A stretch of DNA of 64,000 nucleotides from an uncultured bacterium (GTDB taxonomy: Bacteria > Auribacterota > UBA3054 > JAPLST01): positions 10,182 through 74,181 of the forward strand of contig CAYNJC010000009.1 of the NCBI GenBank assembly GCA_964397565.1. The letters are read 5' to 3'. Each line of letters starts with the position of its first letter. Position 1 is the stretch's first letter. The position numbers and the translations under genes were made by a program. The notes below the pieces were generated by a model that ran no database searches, was not told where the DNA came from, and saw only the letters and a list, made by a program, of their open reading frames with translations. Of this stretch, positions 8 through 7,128 are shown piece by piece.

Positions 8-3000
8 GTGACGACACCGGCGTGGCTGCCGCCAGCGGCAGTCCATTGCTCGCTCCTCAATGCACCCGACGGGCCGGCGTGGGCATGCGTCCTGGGGCTG
101 GTGCAAAGCCATCTAAAGTCATTTGTCCAAGAAGACGGCTCGCTTGTGCTTGGATTGATAGAAGATTGGGCTAAGAGTGTCACATGGCAGAATCGTTATC
201 CGGAGGGAGCCCAATCCGTTGCAGCTATCGCGCACTGGCTCCTTTCCAGTTTCGACGAGTACCGGTCGAAGGATCAGCGCAAGCGCACGCTGAAGGTGAT
301 TGCCAAGATCCCTAATGAAGACACTGAACGTTTCGCCGCTCTTTTACAGGGAAGCCGCTGCGAGGATGATCGAGATCGGGCGGCAGAGGAGTTCCGGACT
401 ATTATATTTACAGGTATGGAAGGTAATGCAGCGGCTAGGGACATGCCCGACACCATAGTGTCGGCCGCAAACGACTATCTACTCTGTTCGGAAGCCGACC
501 TCCGTCATGAATGGGATTTCGCACCTGATCTGGAACTCGAGAGCCTCTTTGGCATAAAGTGTGGCAGGAGCCAAGAGTTCTTCCATGCCAGTGCCTACCG
601 CGGTCCCTTCCTTGCACTTCTGCGCCATCATCCTATGAAAGGCCTCGCATTTATTATCAACGTATTCAACCACAGTGCGGAGTACTATGCGCATCCGAGG
701 GTCCGCTCGGAGTATGTCGAACTGCCCTTCGAAATTACGCTGACTTTTTCGGATGGAACAGTGCGGACGCAGTGGTGTAACTCGCGACTTTGGAACCTCT
801 ATAGAGGGACTTCAGTCGGCCCCTATGTGATGCAATCTCTCCTTATGGCGTTAGAACACTGGCTGCTGGAGCTTGCAGAGATGCAAGCGCAAGAATTAGA
901 CTTGGTCCTGCTCAGAATTTTGCGAGAGAGCAGATCTGCCGCGCTCACCGCCGTCGTGGCGAGTATCGCGACTGCCTTCCCTGATGCGTCAGGCGAGACA
1001 CTGTTGATCCTGCTCAGATCGCCTTTGTGCATCCGACTAGATCGCGAGCGCCTCGTGCAAGAATCTCTGATAACGTCCAGGTTATTTCACTTAATGCCCG
1101 AATTTGACTCAAGGAACACCATCTACGACCAAGAACGGAAGGAATCGGATGCACGCCCCCATCGCCATGACCATCTTGAGACTGCCATCACGAATCTTCA
1201 GTTTGGACCGCTTGCCGCACGTGTGCATGAAATTCTCGATCAGCACCGGGGCGCCCTGCCGCCGAATTCGGAGCAGACGGAGGATGATCGCGCATGGCGC
1301 CTCTCAATGCACCGTATGGACCTTCGACAGTATTCCGTAGCCGAGGTCGATGCGACAGACGTGGTAGAGGCAACCGACGCCCCGTCTACCGAGCCTAAAC
1401 GACGCCGAATACGATTGGACCCGAACGAGCCGGAGCCGGACGTTAAGGAGATGATGCACAAGAGCGCCGTCATGCTCAATTCAATGATGGGAAAGATCAG
1501 CCTTCTCATGTGGGGTAATAAAGTGTTCGCTCATGAGCAACCTACGACTTACGATCCTGTGCAGTGGCAGCAGAGGCTAAAGGAAGCACGAACTGCCGGA
1601 GTCTGGGATGATAATGGCGAGGAGCACGACCTGCACCGAGGTGGCCCCGGGTTCGTCGCTGCTTTGTGCGTTCGCGATCACTGGGAGGACATGTCGGCTG
1701 ACGAACGGGATTGGTGCTTTGGCGTGGTCTGCTCGGAAGTGGAACGGAACGCAGATCACTGGAACAAACTTCCACGCATGCAACGGAATGGCATGTGTGC
1801 CGACCGCCCGTGCGCCTCGGTCATTTCGTTGCTAATCGGAAAATCGCTGTCCAAAACGCAGCGATTGCGTGTTGAGCAGACGTTTGCGACCGCACTGACC
1901 CATTCAAATGAGGAGGTGCGCTGGTACGCGGTGTGGGGCATCGCCAATCAGCTATGGTCCATCGACCGCGAACTGGCCATGCGCTGCGTGAATGCCCTTG
2001 CCAGCGAGGCGACTCTGGTCGACCAAGCGCGAGGCATAGAGGTCAAACGTCCCTACGACGAGCGTCGGCAAATCGACGCGATCCTAGCCGATGCGGCTTC
2101 AGCCGTCCGGCAGCGATTCTGGCACACGAGAGGTATCGCGGAGGATGCGTATCGGAGTCTGAACACTAAGCAATGGTTCGGCGCAGAGGCAAACGTGCGA
2201 ATCCTAGCGATCTTGAGTCGGGTGTCAACCGAGCCTGTGGCCATAGAGAGCTTCACGCGAGCTGCACACACGCTAGTTGAATGGTGGGATTCTGACGATG
2301 ACCGCAGACGTAGCCGCGACGGAGCACATCGCGAACGCAACCACGAGACTGAATCGGCGGTATACGAACTCCTCCGGAGTTTCGTAATGCGGACATCTAA
2401 AAATGCGCCCATAACAATACTCCAAGCAGTGCTCGATGCGGTTGACCGCCACCCGGGCGAGATCCACTGGTTCGTCCAGGGCCTGATCGGTGTTGAGGAT
2501 CGCGAGCCGAATACTAACCAATTTTGGCTTGTGTGGGAGCTTTTTGCCGACAGAGTCAGGCGCGCGAAGTGGCTGGCCCAGTTAGATGACGAACACCCGA
2601 CCGGGGACCAAATGGTTTCCGCCATTTTCCTGGGAACTTGGTGGAAGGAAGAGGTTCGCCACTGGAGGAGTTTAGAAGGACATCAACACCGTGTGCACAT
2701 TTTGTTTAAGAACTTGCCTCCTTGTTCTGTTGTGCTCGATGGCTATGTCAGGTTCCTGTATCATATCGGTCAGCAGTCCCTTCCTGAAGCCTTCGTCCAA
2801 ATTGCCGAGCGCCTCCAGTCAGGAGACACTCAATGGATGCTTAGAAGAACGAACACTGTTTTCATGCTTGAAGTGCTGCTCCAGCGGCACGTGTACAGCA
2901 GGCCACTGGAACTCAAGCAAAGCCCTGCGCTCCGTGACGCGGTGCTTGTGCTGCTTGATCTGCTCGTCGAAAGTGGTTCATCAGCGGCATTTCGAATGCG

Positions 3001-3034
3001 AGATGACTTCGTAACACCAGCCTCAAACACATGA
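8..3034 (+). CDS. Large alpha-helical repeat protein of unknown function, probably 5'-truncated by the window edge
   Basis: 1008-aa ORF. The frame stays open back to nt 2, so the true start may lie upstream. HEAT/ARM-like helical segments (e.g. NEEVRWYAVWGIANQLW). No Walker A, HExxH or nuclease motif seen by eye. AT-richer than the core of the window. Confidence 0.6.
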   Translation: MTTPAWLPPAAVHCSLLNAPDGPAWACVLGLVQSHLKSFVQEDGSLVLGLIEDWAKSVTWQNRYPEGAQSVAAIAHWLLSSFDEYRSKDQRKRTLKVIAKIPNEDTERFAALLQGSRCEDDRDRAAEEFRTIIFTGMEGNAAARDMPDTIVSAANDYLLCSEADLRHEWDFAPDLELESLFGIKCGRSQEFFHASAYRGPFLALLRHHPMKGLAFIINVFNHSAEYYAHPRVRSEYVELPFEITLTFSDGTVRTQWCNSRLWNLYRGTSVGPYVMQSLLMALEHWLLELAEMQAQELDLVLLRILRESRSAALTAVVASIATAFPDASGETLLILLRSPLCIRLDRERLVQESLITSRLFHLMPEFDSRNTIYDQERKESDARPHRHDHLETAITNLQFGPLAARVHEILDQHRGALPPNSEQTEDDRAWRLSMHRMDLRQYSVAEVDATDVVEATDAPSTEPKRRRIRLDPNEPEPDVKEMMHKSAVMLNSMMGKISLLMWGNKVFAHEQPTTYDPVQWQQRLKEARTAGVWDDNGEEHDLHRGGPGFVAALCVRDHWEDMSADERDWCFGVVCSEVERNADHWNKLPRMQRNGMCADRPCASVISLLIGKSLSKTQRLRVEQTFATALTHSNEEVRWYAVWGIANQLWSIDRELAMRCVNALASEATLVDQARGIEVKRPYDERRQIDAILADAASAVRQRFWHTRGIAEDAYRSLNTKQWFGAEANVRILAILSRVSTEPVAIESFTRAAHTLVEWWDSDDDRRRSRDGAHRERNHETESAVYELLRSFVMRTSKNAPITILQAVLDAVDRHPGEIHWFVQGLIGVEDREPNTNQFWLVWELFADRVRRAKWLAQLDDEHPTGDQMVSAIFLGTWWKEEVRHWRSLEGHQHRVHILFKNLPPCSVVLDGYVRFLYHIGQQSLPEAFVQIAERLQSGDTQWMLRRTNTVFMLEVLLQRHVYSRPLELKQSPALRDAVLVLLDLLVESGSSAAFRMRDDFVTPASNT

Positions 3035-3135: not shown

Positions 3136-3220
3136 TGAGAACCCGATTCTGGTGAGGCACGGCGGCAGCGCAGCATCGAGGTCCAGGCCGCTGCCGGGAC
3201 TAGCCCAGTCAGCGCGGCAG

Positions 3221-3262
3221 TTTTCCGTTTTCGGTTTTCCGTTTTCGGTTTTCCGTTTTCGG
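3221..3262. repeat. Perfect 3 x 14-nt tandem repeat (ttttccgttttcgg), i.e. six heptamers
   Basis: Read directly: 3221-3234, 3235-3248 and 3249-3262 are identical. A related gttttcg heptamer array lies at 28291-28318. Confidence 0.95.
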
Positions 3263-3425
3263 ATCACCAACCAACCGCATTCGCCGCGCGGCGGCGGGCA
3301 GAGTGCGGAATGGGGCATGCATTGACAGTTGACAAATTGGGAAGCGGCGCTTCGCGCGCATAAGTAAATTCGTTTTTGCGGAAGGATTTTGAGAAGCGCT
3401 CACAAAGCGTACTGCACTAACGATA

Positions 3426-3450
3426 ACAAACGACAGAAAATGTCGTCTGT
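3426..3450. repeat. Dispersed palindrome ACAAACGACA-N5-TGTCGTTTGT, copy 1
   Basis: acaaacgaca gaaaa tgtcgtctgt; 10-nt arms with one mismatch; about 30 nt upstream of the -35 box at 3481. Confidence 0.8.
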
Positions 3451-3480
3451 GGCGACGCATCATGTCCGCTCCTATAGCAC

Positions 3481-3509
3481 TTGACACAACCGGCGCGCAA
3501 TGCTATGAT
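3481..3509 (+). promoter_or_regulatory. Near-consensus sigma70-type promoter
   Basis: TTGACA (3481-3486), 17-nt spacer, TATGAT (3504-3509). About 245 nt upstream of the TTG start at 3755. Confidence 0.55.
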
Positions 3510-3669
3510 TTTGAGTTCAGGTTGGGCTCCGGTCGTGCTGGAGCGCGGTCAGAAACAAGAATAATGTAACTGCTTTGTCATGCGTGCTATGCAGAATGTG
3601 TTTGAGGGCGTGCTGATGCTGCTCCGCGAGCACATGCCGCAGGATAATCCGAGCAAACAAACGCCAAGC

Positions 3670-3713
3670 GGCGCCGCTGTGCTTGCCGCACCAGCAGTGA
3701 ACAGAATATCATG
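3670..3713 (+). repeat. Distal motif of duplicated intergenic element, copy A
   Basis: Core tgccgcaccagcagtgaacagaatatcatg matches 6557-6598 with 3 mismatches in 32 nt. Ends 42 nt before the start of the next gene. Confidence 0.75.
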
Positions 3714-3754
3714 AGAACTAAGTAGAATTACTAGTTACAAATAAAGGAGTATGC

Positions 3755-4282
3755 TTGAGCTGGATTGTCTTTGACGAGCGACTCAACGAGGCGGACATGA
3801 TGGGAGCCGCTGGCCGCAGCCTGTTCGTTTGCCAGCACTTCGAGTCGACTTGCAAAGACATCGTCGCTTGGCTCTGTCTGGCGAAGGCGCTGACTGAAGA
3901 CCAGTTCGAGTTCCTTGACGACGCCCACAAAGACTATGTTCTAACGCTCCTCAAGCTCTTCCTGGGCAAGTCGATCGAGCGTCTCGGCGAAGACCATCCT
4001 GATATCCCTGCAGCGGACATCGACACTCTTAAAGCGGCCGCAAGCTCGCGCAACTATATCTGTCATGACCTCCTGCTCGATCACATCCATACCGGTTTTG
4101 GTCGACATTATGTGCGACATTGGGATGAGCGGCTGCACCGCGAGCGCGTGGTGGCTTTGGCGCAGGGAGACTATCTGGTCTCTCGATGGTCCTACGAGTT
4201 TCACGAGAAAGAATCCGGTGCCTTAATTGGGCGCGAGGGATACGTGGAGCGTGTCGTTCAATGGGTGTTCGCTGATGGCTAA
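3755..4282 (+). CDS. Small alpha-helical protein with an Rx4H motif; putative HEPN-domain RNase-like protein
   Basis: 175-aa ORF with a TTG start 5 nt after AAGGAG (3744-3749). Motif R99-N-Y-I-C-H104 (nt 4049-4066) fits the HEPN Rx4-6H signature (RNxxxH form). The size suits a HEPN domain. The fold assignment is an inference. Confidence 0.55.
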   Translation: MSWIVFDERLNEADMMGAAGRSLFVCQHFESTCKDIVAWLCLAKALTEDQFEFLDDAHKDYVLTLLKLFLGKSIERLGEDHPDIPAADIDTLKAAASSRNYICHDLLLDHIHTGFGRHYVRHWDERLHRERVVALAQGDYLVSRWSYEFHEKESGALIGREGYVERVVQWVFADG

Positions 4283-4365
4283 CAAGCGCATCGAGCGGAC
4301 GGCGAGAGGTAGACTGCGGAAGAGAGGCGGGTGACCGCCGCTCATGCGCCAGACGTTAGCTTAAG

Positions 4366-6030
4366 ATGAAAGACACCGAAAGAGAACTCTCGCCGCGATA
4401 CTACATTGCCGAAGGATCCATTTGGCTGTTCATTGCCATCTTGCTGGTCTCGCGATTTATTGGTCTGGCCCCAGACCAAGCTCTTCCTGTCCTGAGCGTC
4501 AATGTGGGCAACATCGAGTACTATCCCAGAGTTGTCGCCGCCTTGTTGCTCGCCGCAGTATTTTACATGGTAGTCGAATGGAAGCAGTCTGCACCCACGG
4601 CGCGAGACACAAACTGGCAGCGCATTCGCCTGAGTTTCACGGGGCTGTCGGCGGCGGCTTCACTGTGGATATCGTACCCTATCATTGCTCAAAACACGCA
4701 GTTCGCGGCCGTATCACCGGCATGGTATCTAGGATTCGCGGCGATAGGGTTTTTCCTCGGGTTATTTGGCTCGGTCTTGGCCTTCTCTGCACTGATGACC
4801 CGAAGTCTTGAGGAATCCAAGCGACTGCGCCTTCCACGTGTCCCCGCAGCGAGTCGAGCACAATTCTTTACATGGACACCGGCGATTCTGTTACTCATGG
4901 TTGCCTATTACGTTCTCATTTCGTTTTCGCCTCCAGTGATTCGCGGTATTGCAGGCGCTCTCGTTGTGGTTCCTTTCATCCTGATGATTGGCAAAAAATG
5001 GAAGTCACTTTATCTTGCACGCGATGACAATGGAAAGCGCATACCGTACTTACAGCGCATGGCGCGACTGAAAGAAATCTACGACTTTCACGATTACGCC
5101 TACTTCCTCATGGATGAAGGCGAACGTGCAACAAAAGAACTCGACATTCCTGCGCCTGATTCACCGCAGGCTGTCCAGCAGGCGATACAGAAGAACTACT
5201 CGGCAGCACAAGCTCAAACGCCCGTCAAGTTCCGTGCTCAGCTATTGGAGGCTATGCAACTTAGGTTCTACCCGAAGGACGGGAATCCGAGAAACTATCA
5301 TGCTGAGAACTGTGGTGTTGGAGTCTCCAATCATCAGGGCAGGAAAGAGCAGGTCCGTGTTCTTTTTATTCCGGAAGATTCAGGTGATCCCAAGAAGGAG
5401 ATGGCGATTTCCTGTGCTGCTGTGGAGAAGTATGCCGAAGAATACATTAGAGACCACGCCGACCAGCAGAACATGAGTTCCCGCAAGATCGTCTCCCACG
5501 CTGTCAACCGCGCCGTGATGGAAGCTATAGTTGACGATGGAGGACCTCGGCTTCACAGACTGGTAGAAAGCGGAGAAGAGACACGCGTTGCGGAGCTGCT
5601 CAAACAGAAACCTGATGTCAACGAGAGAGCTGAGGCCGGATGGACACCACTTCTCTATGCCTCTGCACAGGGTTATCCTCGAATAGTGCACATGCTGCTT
5701 GATGCTGGTGCGAACCCAGACATCGGCAACGCGCTCGGGATAACGCCACTCATTTATAGTGCACGATACGGGAATGCAGAAGTCTGCCAGGTCCTTCTTG
5801 ACTATGAAGCGGATGTGGATCTCCAAGACGTGTACGGCATGAGTGCTCTGATGGTGGCCTGTCGCGATGGTCATAGTGAGATTGTGAAGTTACTGTTGGA
5901 TGCAAGAGCAAATCCCAAAATCGAGACAAGGGAAGGCAAGACTGCCTTGGACTTCTGCTATGCATGTGGTCACGGCCGAATTGCCAAAACACTGAAGAGA
6001 GCTAACAAGAGCATTCAACATGCAAAATGA
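4366..6030 (+). CDS. Multi-pass membrane protein with C-terminal ankyrin repeats
   Basis: 554 aa. About six hydrophobic helices in the first ~210 aa. Four to five ANK repeats at the C-terminus (GWTPLLYASAQGYPRIVHMLLDAGANPD, GITPLIYSARYGNAEVCQVLLDYEADVD, GMSALMVACRDGHSEIVKLLLDARANP, GKTALDFCYACGH). Confidence 0.8.
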   Translation: MKDTERELSPRYYIAEGSIWLFIAILLVSRFIGLAPDQALPVLSVNVGNIEYYPRVVAALLLAAVFYMVVEWKQSAPTARDTNWQRIRLSFTGLSAAASLWISYPIIAQNTQFAAVSPAWYLGFAAIGFFLGLFGSVLAFSALMTRSLEESKRLRLPRVPAASRAQFFTWTPAILLLMVAYYVLISFSPPVIRGIAGALVVVPFILMIGKKWKSLYLARDDNGKRIPYLQRMARLKEIYDFHDYAYFLMDEGERATKELDIPAPDSPQAVQQAIQKNYSAAQAQTPVKFRAQLLEAMQLRFYPKDGNPRNYHAENCGVGVSNHQGRKEQVRVLFIPEDSGDPKKEMAISCAAVEKYAEEYIRDHADQQNMSSRKIVSHAVNRAVMEAIVDDGGPRLHRLVESGEETRVAELLKQKPDVNERAEAGWTPLLYASAQGYPRIVHMLLDAGANPDIGNALGITPLIYSARYGNAEVCQVLLDYEADVDLQDVYGMSALMVACRDGHSEIVKLLLDARANPKIETREGKTALDFCYACGHGRIAKTLKRANKSIQHAK

Positions 6031-6130: not shown

Positions 6131-6556
6131 AACAGCAAGACGTTTTCCTCGAACCACTCCGTCGGCGGCTGGCGAGACTATCAAAGCCAACTCCAAGCAG
6201 GGTGCGCGGCTATCCACGCTCCACACCTGCGGCGGGACAAAATTGACCAAGTCAGCGCGAAGGCAGTCTTGTGCTTTTTGTGAGTTGTTGTGGCAAAACA
6301 TGTTGTTCCTGCTGTGGTGGCGGTCAGACATCCCCAGTGCCGTCTGCAAACAAGCTCCATTACTGATTGGCAGAATCGCCGCACAGAGGCGGCTCCCACA
6401 TTCTTTAAGCATCTGCCACCGACGTATCCCGCCGCTGGCGGAACTCCATGCAGCCATAAGTCGCTGCCGTACGCCACGCGCTCCGCGCGGGGCATGCTGA
6501 CCGTGCTGATCGCGGTTGACTCCGCCGCTGCGCAATGCTTTGATAGCGCCACGTTG

Positions 6557-6598
6557 CGGCACCGTGCCTGCCGCACCACCAGTGAACAGAATGTGATG
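6557..6598 (+). repeat. Distal motif of duplicated intergenic element, copy B
   Basis: Core tgccgcaccaccagtgaacagaatgtgatg. Ends 50 nt before the brnT start. Confidence 0.75.
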
Positions 6599-6647: not shown

Positions 6648-6923
6648 ATGCGATTCGAATGGGATCCAGACAAGGCGGCAGCGAATCTCAGAAAGCACGG
6701 TGTCTCGTTCTCCGACGCGGCAACGGTGTTTGGCGATCCGCTGTCCCACACTTTTTTCGATCCAGACCACTCAGCAACCGAGGAGCGTTGCATCACAATC
6801 GGCGTATCGCGTTCGGGGATCCTGTTGGTCGTTGCCCATACGGAACACGGCGAGCGGGTGCGGATCATCAGCGCACGGAAACCAACACGCACGGAGCGAA
6901 ACTATTATGAAGACAAGAAATAG
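6648..6923 (+). CDS. brnT: BrnT-family (DUF497) type II toxin
   Basis: 91 aa. MRFEWDPDKAAANLRKHGVSFSDAATVFGDP...RIISARKPTRTER is the typical BrnT/DUF497 pattern. Confidence 0.85.
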   Translation: MRFEWDPDKAAANLRKHGVSFSDAATVFGDPLSHTFFDPDHSATEERCITIGVSRSGILLVVAHTEHGERVRIISARKPTRTERNYYEDKK

Positions 6924-7128
6924 TACTCAGGACAAAGACACACTCCGCCCGGAATATGACTTCACGCAACTGAAGTCGCGCGGAAGGGGCAGATACGCCA
7001 AGCGCTACCGTGAAGGAACGAATCTTGTCTTGCTTGCGTCAGATGTGGCGGATGTGTTTCCCGATGACGCATCGGTCAACGAGGCGTTGCGGACGTTGAT
7101 GCGCGTGGGCCAGCTGCACGCGCGATAA
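6907..7128 (+). CDS. brnA: BrnA-like antitoxin
   Basis: 73-aa ORF starting at an internal ATG of the 6619..7128 track ORF. It overlaps the brnT stop by 17 nt. LRPEYDFTQLK...NEALRTLM resembles the cognate antitoxins encoded downstream of BrnT. Confidence 0.7.
   Translation: MKTRNSTQDKDTLRPEYDFTQLKSRGRGRYAKRYREGTNLVLLASDVADVFPDDASVNEALRTLMRVGQLHAR

Follow-up and report, generated by a model that had tools for sequence, protein, structure and literature searches.

A widespread family of solitary HEPN-like proteins and its member beside Avs4 in an uncultured Auribacterota bacterium

HEPN domains are recognised by an Rx4-6H motif, by a polar residue (N, D or H) after the arginine, and by an acidic Ex3[KR] motif further upstream (PMC3710099). 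Their fold is an all-α up-down bundle in which an insert separates helices 2 and 3, and the motif lies where helix 3 ends or where the loop to helix 4 begins. The characterised enzymes dimerise, which joins two Rx4-6H motifs, and they cut RNA without a metal; the domains are known to be too divergent for routine detection (PMC3710099). Here we consider a protein of 175 amino acids (aa), which we call SP (small protein), a label that we also use for its family. The open reading frame (ORF) occupies positions 3755..4282 of the forward strand in a 64,000-nucleotide (nt) stretch of contig CAYNJC010000009.1, from an uncultured bacterium of the Auribacterota. That whole stretch is the window, and coordinates refer to it unless marked L144, the label of the source contig stretch, where a coordinate equals the window coordinate plus 6246.

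Two stand-alone HEPN proteins are the relevant precedents. HepS, the 'HEPN Solo' protein of the Salmonella prophage Gifsy-1 (PDB 9OIJ/9OIK), is a partner-less phage defence that is made constitutively, rests as an inactive tetramer and is activated by the binding of a phage tail-tip protein (PMC13043305). AbiV, a lactococcal abortive-infection HEPN RNase of ~200 aa, is metal-independent and dimeric; it was long held to be a single-gene system, yet it needs an upstream RNA antitoxin of ~300 nt (bioRxiv 10.1101/2024.05.05.592566). In addition, DUF4145 and the Apea-like HEPN are both defence-linked HEPN families (PMC3710099). With a little more confidence than doubt, we propose that SP is a solitary, single-domain HEPN-type RNase whose role would probably be that of a toxin or an abortive-infection effector, similar in kind to HepS or AbiV, and that the protein encoded just downstream of it, with transmembrane (TM) helices and ankyrin repeats (TM-ankyrin), is independent of it.

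The SP gene starts with TTG, and the Shine-Dalgarno sequence AAAGGAG (3743..3749, +) lies 5 nt 5′ of this codon, in agreement with the start and the AAGGAG given in the first-pass annotation, an earlier reading of the letters of this DNA. The start is further supported because the N-termini of homologues, M-[GS]-W-I, line up with it; W3 is present in 107/124 of them. Taken as a sign of a toxin, a non-ATG start is unremarkable, being found in six of eight close homologues and in just 16 of 75 loci overall. Codons 99-104 (4049..4066, +) read CGC AAC TAT ATC TGT CAT and follow directly on L-K-A-A-A-S-S, so that the R-N-Y-I-C-H sequence on which the first-pass annotation had built its case is indeed encoded where it was placed.

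Homologues were sought by a word-indexed search, which gave 15 close clusters, and then by a full hidden Markov model (HMM) search of 1.84 billion representatives, which gave 388 SP-family representatives at an expectation value (E) of E<=1e-3 and 187 at E<=1e-10. Because nearly all of the 388 are 165-220 aa long and are matched end to end, the family is one of stand-alone, single-domain proteins. It occurs in Actinomycetota (many of them Streptomyces), Planctomycetota, Pseudomonadota, Acidobacteriota, Zixibacteria and others, as well as on metagenome contigs, and yet, widespread as it is, it has no Pfam, NCBIfam or PADLOC model; homologues on three Streptomyces/Kitasatospora plasmids carry the annotation 'hypothetical protein'.

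The alignment used for conservation comprises 124 members, down to ~22 % identity, and has just four invariant columns, G20, R99, N100 and H104. Position 21 is basic ([KR]21) in 124/124. Each of the sequence hallmarks of the HEPN superfamily (Pfam clan CL0291; Anantharaman et al. 2013) has its equivalent here. The putative catalytic R-x4-H, R99-N100-Y-I-C-H104 in SP, retains its arginine and histidine in 124/124 members, the polar residue after the arginine is N100 in 124/124, and the upstream acidic motif, as defined in PMC3710099, is represented by E30-S-T-C-K34 (3842..3856, +), with E30 in 122 members (D in the other two) and K or R at position 34 in 96/124. The consensus around the central motif is A-[KR]-x-A-R-N-x-I-A-H-E. 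An R-x4-H alone would be within chance expectation for a protein of 175 aa; the motif gains its weight because R99, N100 and H104 are kept in all 124 homologues.

The AlphaFold (AF2) model of SP is all-helical, with a predicted local distance difference test (pLDDT) of 85.6 and a predicted TM-score (pTM) of 0.81. In the model R99-H104 close a helix at 86-105, at its C-terminal end, and are followed by a loop and by a helix at 125-145; extra helices occupy 56-80. As far as the helix boundaries go, this arrangement is consistent with the HEPN description.

All 124 members were also scanned singly against Pfam at E<=1. The sub-threshold matches were to HEPN_Apea (20), DUF4145 (18), HEPN_RiboL-PSP (5), HEPN_Swt1 (3), HepT-like (2) and HEPN_Cthe2314 (2), and every other family was matched only once or twice. 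These ~50 matches are spread over six HEPN families of one Pfam clan, with a best E of 2.2e-4, and they cover the segment that ends at residues ~105-110, the motif helix, in each of ten members inspected singly. The weak PADLOC matches of the family are of the same kind (RT-HEPN, Cas13-ApeA, Csx1/Csm6 and CARF-HEPN). A PDB sequence search aligned the SP profile weakly with Pyrococcus furiosus Csx1 (4eog), motif on motif, at E 1.4, and hhalign likewise placed motif on motif for one HepT toxin, at a non-significant E of ~0.1. Neither the 181-aa gene that precedes Avs4 at this locus nor STM2620 of Gifsy-1 was significantly similar to the SP profile by hhalign. All told, it is likely, though not demonstrated, that SP is a member of the HEPN superfamily.

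Where, then, do the genes of this family occur? Loci were retrieved with a narrower sub-alignment (A3), the deep one (A2) having proved too diverse for this. There are 76 SP loci beyond the window, 77 with it. In the closest clade SP stands directly after, and on the same strand as, Avs4 (the window), a STAND NTPase with NB-ARC, TPR and CSD domains, Thoeris ThsA/ThsB, or a DUF3800 gene. SP is also found beside a divergently oriented type I restriction subunit, after an integrase and as part of a Tn7-like cargo, and in L005/L006 it lies between complete HepT/MNT pairs. A bulk Pfam/PADLOC scan of the 130 nearest SP neighbours found Avs2, type I and type IIG restriction-modification, ThsB, MADS components and PD-T4-6; the same scan also found DDE transposases, phage capsid genes and many housekeeping genes. 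When all ORFs within 4.5 kb were clustered by blastp, no family was present in more than 7 of the 77 loci, and the most recurrent ones are syntenic Streptomyces flanks.

Two local arrangements were seen among these loci. In L005-L008, from a groundwater metagenome, a 199-aa protein is encoded 36 nt 5′ of the SP homologue (L005 2237-2818), and the pair is flanked by two complete MNT/HepT pairs. In five actinomycete loci (L042, L054, L056, L062 and L069) a protein of 230-380 aa without a Pfam match is encoded directly 5′ of SP on the same strand, with a gap of ~55-60 nt (316 nt in L069); in a sixth locus, L058, a copy is 1.6 kb away. The actinomycete protein may be a lineage-specific partner of SP or may reflect mere synteny.

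By analogy with characterised HEPN enzymes, SP would form a homodimer or homo-oligomer in which two R99-N100-x3-H104 motifs face each other, with E30 assisting, and would cut RNA without a metal, leaving 2′,3′-cyclic phosphate ends. The family also has a second conserved block, G-D-x-L-V-S-x-W-x-Y-E-x-x-E-K-E, together with Y163 and W170; it is tempting to assign it a part in oligomerisation or in the sensing of a trigger, which is speculation. SP would travel as the solitary cargo of variable regions, often beside defence genes. A solitary toxic RNase would need restraint, and we infer that SP is a conflict-system RNase kept inactive until a trigger appears, either by its own quaternary structure, as HepS is, or by low expression. 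For such restraint HepS seems a better precedent than AbiV. In the present genome SP sits between Avs4 and BrnT/BrnA in a low-GC (guanine plus cytosine) island, with a strong promoter of its own, and the TM-ankyrin protein would merely be encoded downstream in the same transcription unit, with no sensor or effector role toward SP.

Several observations weigh against this proposal. Pfam, NCBIfam and PADLOC have no match to the SP sequence even at E<=1, and none of their curated HEPN models scores above threshold for SP, for the 15 close members or for the 124. Foldseek of the SP model against PDB and BFVD returned nothing at E<1 and no HEPN structure; PDB searches with two SP profiles returned noise (tektin, E 2e-3) besides the motif-only alignment with Csx1 4eog; and hhalign with the two HepT toxins from L005 was not significant, the second of these not aligning on the motif. 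In the model E30 falls in the first long helix (8-47), as against helix 2 in the published description, the numbering of the helices being uncertain. As for biology, neither viral contigs nor phage genomes yielded a member of the family, and only roughly a tenth of the nearest SP neighbours match defence models while many are housekeeping genes, which leaves a role in defence short of established. It would be difficult to keep a constitutively toxic RNase in a genome with no antitoxin to counter it, and no antitoxin was found for SP. Lastly, in a search for transcripts, the sequencing runs that contain the locus were DNA metagenomes only.

These results leave room for a different view of SP, namely that it is not a nuclease but another helical fold, in which R-N-x3-H serves the binding of a ligand, nucleotide or protein, or some other chemistry, the likeness to HEPN being convergent. 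We consider this unlikely. It would account for a confident model that retrieves neither a HEPN nor any other structure, for HMM, hhalign and PDB-profile results that stay short of significance, and for the many loci with housekeeping genes and no antitoxin; moreover, the second conserved block, with Y163 and W170, has no counterpart in the HEPN definition. On the other hand, it has to explain why three independent HEPN hallmarks, R-[N]-x3-H, E-x3-[KR] and a motif that closes a helix, come together in one protein, and why weak matches over the motif accumulate in one clan when other families receive one or two. The failure of routine detection is, in addition, what the known divergence of HEPN domains would lead one to expect (PMC3710099). 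We retain the designation of the first-pass annotation, a putative HEPN RNase, in a qualified form: the structure comparison and profile search that it had proposed revealed a family with an invariant R/H pair, the acidic motif and HEPN-clan weak matches, and retrieved neither a curated model nor a HEPN-like structure.

If SP is a toxin, what would neutralise it? The absence of an MNT-type antitoxin, pointed out in the first-pass annotation, stands, as neither the Pfam, NCBIfam and PADLOC scans nor the gene calls of the source contig revealed an MNT gene nearby; the window contains no NTP_transf_2 neighbour of SP, as a HEPN/MNT toxin-antitoxin pair would have. A second candidate is RNA. SP could be the toxin of a type III-like pair whose antitoxin RNA derives from the long 5′ leader, or from other adjacent non-coding DNA, in the way of AbiV/abiV2. 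The precedent is close, AbiV being itself a stand-alone HEPN RNase of ~200 aa neutralised by an RNA of ~300 nt from upstream, and the SP gene does have a strong promoter ~245 nt 5′ of its start, hence a long leader, which is conserved at ~80 % with that of the neighbouring Avs4 unit. Nevertheless, the leader folds no more stably than shuffled sequence (z = -0.86) and has no match in Rfam, and the upstream regions of eight SP homologues, where the gaps are just 36-184 nt, have nothing in common beyond the ribosome-binding site, so that the conserved or structured non-coding RNA expected beside an AbiV-type toxin was not seen. Furthermore, the unrelated Avs4 unit has this leader in front of it too, so that it is not specific to SP. 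An RNA antitoxin for SP is, in our opinion, highly improbable.

The first-pass annotation had further proposed that SP and the TM-ankyrin protein form an effector/sensor module. The TM-ankyrin gene (4366..6030, +; 554 aa) does begin after a gap of 83 nt from the end of the SP ORF at 4282, as was stated there, and on the same strand, with no terminator-like site between the two genes. Co-transcription is probable because the genes have one common leader copy and no such site separates them; the two are probably co-transcribed island cargo in this genome. The arrangement is identical in four metagenome samples. The module itself found no support in comparison with other genomes. No TM-ankyrin homologue is present in any of the 76 other SP loci (tblastn with the 392 non-ankyrin residues), and no SP homologue in any of 64 TM-ankyrin-derived loci, including ~17 full-length ones (tblastn and HMM search). 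With adjacency found in 0/76 and 0/~17 cases, respectively, the conserved pairing expected of a two-gene operonic system is lacking, which is the very outcome that had been named beforehand as refuting the module.

One may still ask whether the two proteins act as a system in at least this lineage, the HEPN RNase being the effector and the membrane ankyrin protein its sensor or anchor. The orientation, the short gap and the lack of a terminator-like site all suit such a system, as does a gene order that is the same in all metagenome samples examined. The pair lies between two leader copies, and the other two leader-bounded units are genuine pairs (the PD-(D/E)xK-like 181-aa protein with Avs4, and BrnT with BrnA). 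Ankyrin proteins are also known in candidate defence systems, and PDC-M72A matches TM-ankyrin at E 5e-25. That match, however, is confined to the ankyrin repeats. TM-ankyrin homologues stand alone beside ribonucleotide reductase, cobalamin and glucan-synthase genes, and each of the two families keeps a constant architecture without the other. With the mutual absence of the partners from all 76 and 64 loci added to this, we regard a functional pair as improbable; the common promoter and leader copy is the sole evidence for a module. A variant of this idea, to which we give slightly less credence still, sees the leaders as delimiting functional cassettes in a defence hot-spot, and SP with TM-ankyrin as a new, recently assembled two-component system whose membrane-anchored ankyrin protein either controls a solo HEPN RNase or is the site of its delivery. 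The want of conservation elsewhere would then arise because a solo effector had been shuffled onto a new sensor.

The TM-ankyrin protein deserves a description of its own. It has five to six hydrophobic segments within residues 13-213, and in its AlphaFold model (pLDDT 82.5) six long helices span 10-216, followed at 228-391 by an α/β module of two helices, a five-stranded sheet and two more helices, and at 395-553 by five ankyrin helix pairs. This agrees with the first-pass annotation, which had read from the sequence about six N-terminal TM helices, an unassigned middle region and C-terminal ankyrin repeats. Pfam finds just the ankyrin part (Ank_2, E 6.8e-27; Ank, E 6.2e-26), and the PADLOC model PDC-M72A (E 5e-25) likewise matches that region alone; the six-TM part and the α/β module have no family assignment in Pfam, NCBIfam, PADLOC or Foldseek. 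The Foldseek results for the whole model are dominated by designed ankyrin repeat proteins (DARPins) and by fusions of these with G-protein-coupled receptors, and say nothing about the middle domain. Judged by where K and R fall in the loops, both termini, and hence the ankyrin domain, would be cytoplasmic.

Its family comprises 32 clusters, which have the ~550-aa architecture in common; they come from at least six phyla, and the gene always stands alone. The ~17 full-length loci are from Desulfobacterota, Phycisphaerae, Pirellulales, Nitrospirota, Lentisphaerota, Burkholderiales and Methylobacter, and the neighbours are unrelated between loci (cobalamin genes, a group II intron, ribonucleotide reductase, cyclic-glucan synthase). 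Residues Y12, Y13, E16, E71, W120 and R158 of the TM part, and K304-D-G306, N310 and R331 of the α/β module, are invariant or nearly so. TM-ankyrin is an independent inner-membrane protein of an uncharacterised conserved family, and not a regular partner of SP.

Turning to the island as a whole, the window opens with the C-terminal 1008 aa of Avs4 (AVAST type 4), a STAND NTPase (8..3034, +; PADLOC E 3.7e-100, NCBIfam NF041815 E 7.6e-106). The window start truncates this gene, which in full encodes 1735 aa at L144 4087-9294 (PADLOC E 2.9e-154). The gene for a 181-aa protein (L144 3526-4071) lies 15 nt 5′ of Avs4; its product is PD-(D/E)xK-like (PDLLVHK...IIEVKS) and unrelated to SP. The nuclease effector, normally the N-terminal domain of Avs4, may here be split off into this gene. 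Further upstream, L144 938-3100 encodes a secreted-looking protein of 720 aa with about a dozen ~50-aa repeats (...NIAKWNGTxWTNLGSGM...LAVDxxGNLYAGG...), which has the look of a β-propeller and no PADLOC match.

Between Avs4 and SP lies the leader copy R2 (3422..3736, +), a direct repeat of ~315 nt that reproduces the region 5′ of the 181-aa/Avs4 pair. Its elements are the palindrome ACGACAGAAAATGTCGT (3430-3452, +), which is also found in the copy 5′ of the 181-aa/Avs4 pair, a sigma70-like promoter, TTGACA-17-TGnTATGAT (3481-3509, +), with 11/12 consensus matches, and the ~245-nt 5′ leader of SP, with a 44-aa ORF (3580-3714, +). A 52-nt segment of R2 (3662-3713, +) is repeated 5′ of brnT. The copy upstream of the 181-aa/Avs4 pair (L144 3191-3506) is 62-81 % identical to R2 at a constant offset of 6476-6477, and both full copies have the palindrome, a near-consensus promoter, TTGA[A/C]A-17-TGnTATGAT, and a long leader. 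A third, shortened copy, R3 (6526..6598, +), has a degenerate -10 (TGCTTTGAT) and a 52-nt segment 81 % identical to 3662-3713; it lies ~50 nt 5′ of brnT and marks the 3′ end of the SP and TM-ankyrin unit. There are, in short, three consecutive units, nuclease with Avs4, SP with TM-ankyrin, and BrnT with BrnA, each behind a paralogous leader in direct orientation. Scans of genome and metagenome collections found the repeat elsewhere only in the same organism. The repeated leader could be a cassette hot-spot or a duplication of a promoter, and the palindrome ACGACAGAAAATGTCGT may be an operator for a common regulator; at this point, the thrice-repeated leader is a curiosity that deserves a second look.

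Both full leaders contain a small ORF (44 aa, 3580-3714; 60 aa, L144 3351-3533), the first 26 residues being alike (MR...FE.LLMLL..H..Q.NP.K); of the codon differences, 5 are synonymous and 13 non-synonymous. The frame is not kept in the third copy. This ORF may encode a leader peptide, or the conservation may be just at the level of DNA.

The third unit consists of the BrnT toxin gene (6648-6923, +; Pfam BrnT_toxin, E 9.6e-28) and of an overlapping BrnA-like ORF of 73 aa (6907-7128, +), so named from its position only, as it has no Pfam match. GC content is 53-57 % up to ~7.5 kb of the window as against 63-68 % beyond (>10000), a step which suggests that the block of Avs4, SP, TM-ankyrin and BrnTA was acquired horizontally. 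Two further repeats were noted. Between Avs4 and the leader, at 3220-3262, the 14-nt sequence GTTTTCCGTTTTCG is perfectly repeated in tandem three times; metagenome contigs of other organisms break or join at GTTTTCCGTTTTCG, and it is therefore multi-copy in the community. Between TM-ankyrin and brnT, the non-coding segment 6341-6657 (core 6370-6497) has ~8-fold higher assembly depth (115 vs 15), and contigs end there in each of the four samples. This multi-copy element is not a tRNA, and Rfam has no match to it.

How, finally, does SP compare with the systems already described? Judged by its description, HepS carries R100-N101-x3-H105 where SP has R99-N100-x3-H104, that is, a motif with the same R-N start at nearly the same position, and both proteins are small, stand-alone and without a partner gene. 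They differ in that HepS is prophage-encoded in Enterobacteriaceae, while no member of the SP family was found among phage genomes or viral contigs, and in that K71 of HepS has no conserved counterpart in SP, whose position 72 is variable. HepS 9OIJ was not among the PDB profile or Foldseek results for SP, if present in that copy of the PDB. AbiV needs an RNA from upstream, whereas no conserved RNA was found for SP by folding, by comparison of the eight upstream regions or in Rfam, and neither Pfam HEPN_AbiV nor the PADLOC AbiV model is among the recurrent weak matches of SP. The HepT toxin of HepT/MntA (type II/VII; Pfam HepT-like, PF01934) is a small HEPN toxin with an R-x4-H, a motif that SP also has, but it has an MNT partner, which SP lacks in every SP locus, and the similarity is insignificant (E ~0.1). 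The families most often matched by SP, DUF4145 (PF13643; 18 of 124) and the Apea-like HEPN (PF18739; 20 of 124), are matched over LGxxIxxL...A[KR]xARNxIAHE, with best E values of 2.2e-4 and 1.7e-3, below gathering thresholds. ApeA has an N-terminal sensor domain of ~300 aa and DUF4145 is usually fused to a restriction endonuclease or helicase; SP, in contrast, would be the bare domain with a C-terminal block of its own. As to the neighbour, the C-terminal 160 aa of TM-ankyrin are canonical for ankyrin-repeat proteins and DARPin-like (TM-score ~0.93 on target), and, unlike plain ankyrin-repeat proteins, it adds a six-TM N-terminus and the α/β module.

The locus teaches a measure of caution: in a defence island, a toxin-like gene may adjoin the gene for a membrane protein with a repeat domain without the two forming a system. 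It is a recent finding that solo HEPN proteins, HepS among them, can be phage-defence elements complete in themselves, which recognise a phage protein directly, and a family whose 175-aa member is easily cloned would allow the generality of this principle to be tested cheaply. If the HEPN assignment is right, SP adds another family, of ~390 clusters, to the minimal, partner-less HEPN RNases. PADLOC-DB v2.0.0 has no system model that matches SP or the gene pair; the family represents no departure from known principles, and the description that suits it best is that of a new, unannotated addition to the known stand-alone HEPN-type RNases of conflict systems.

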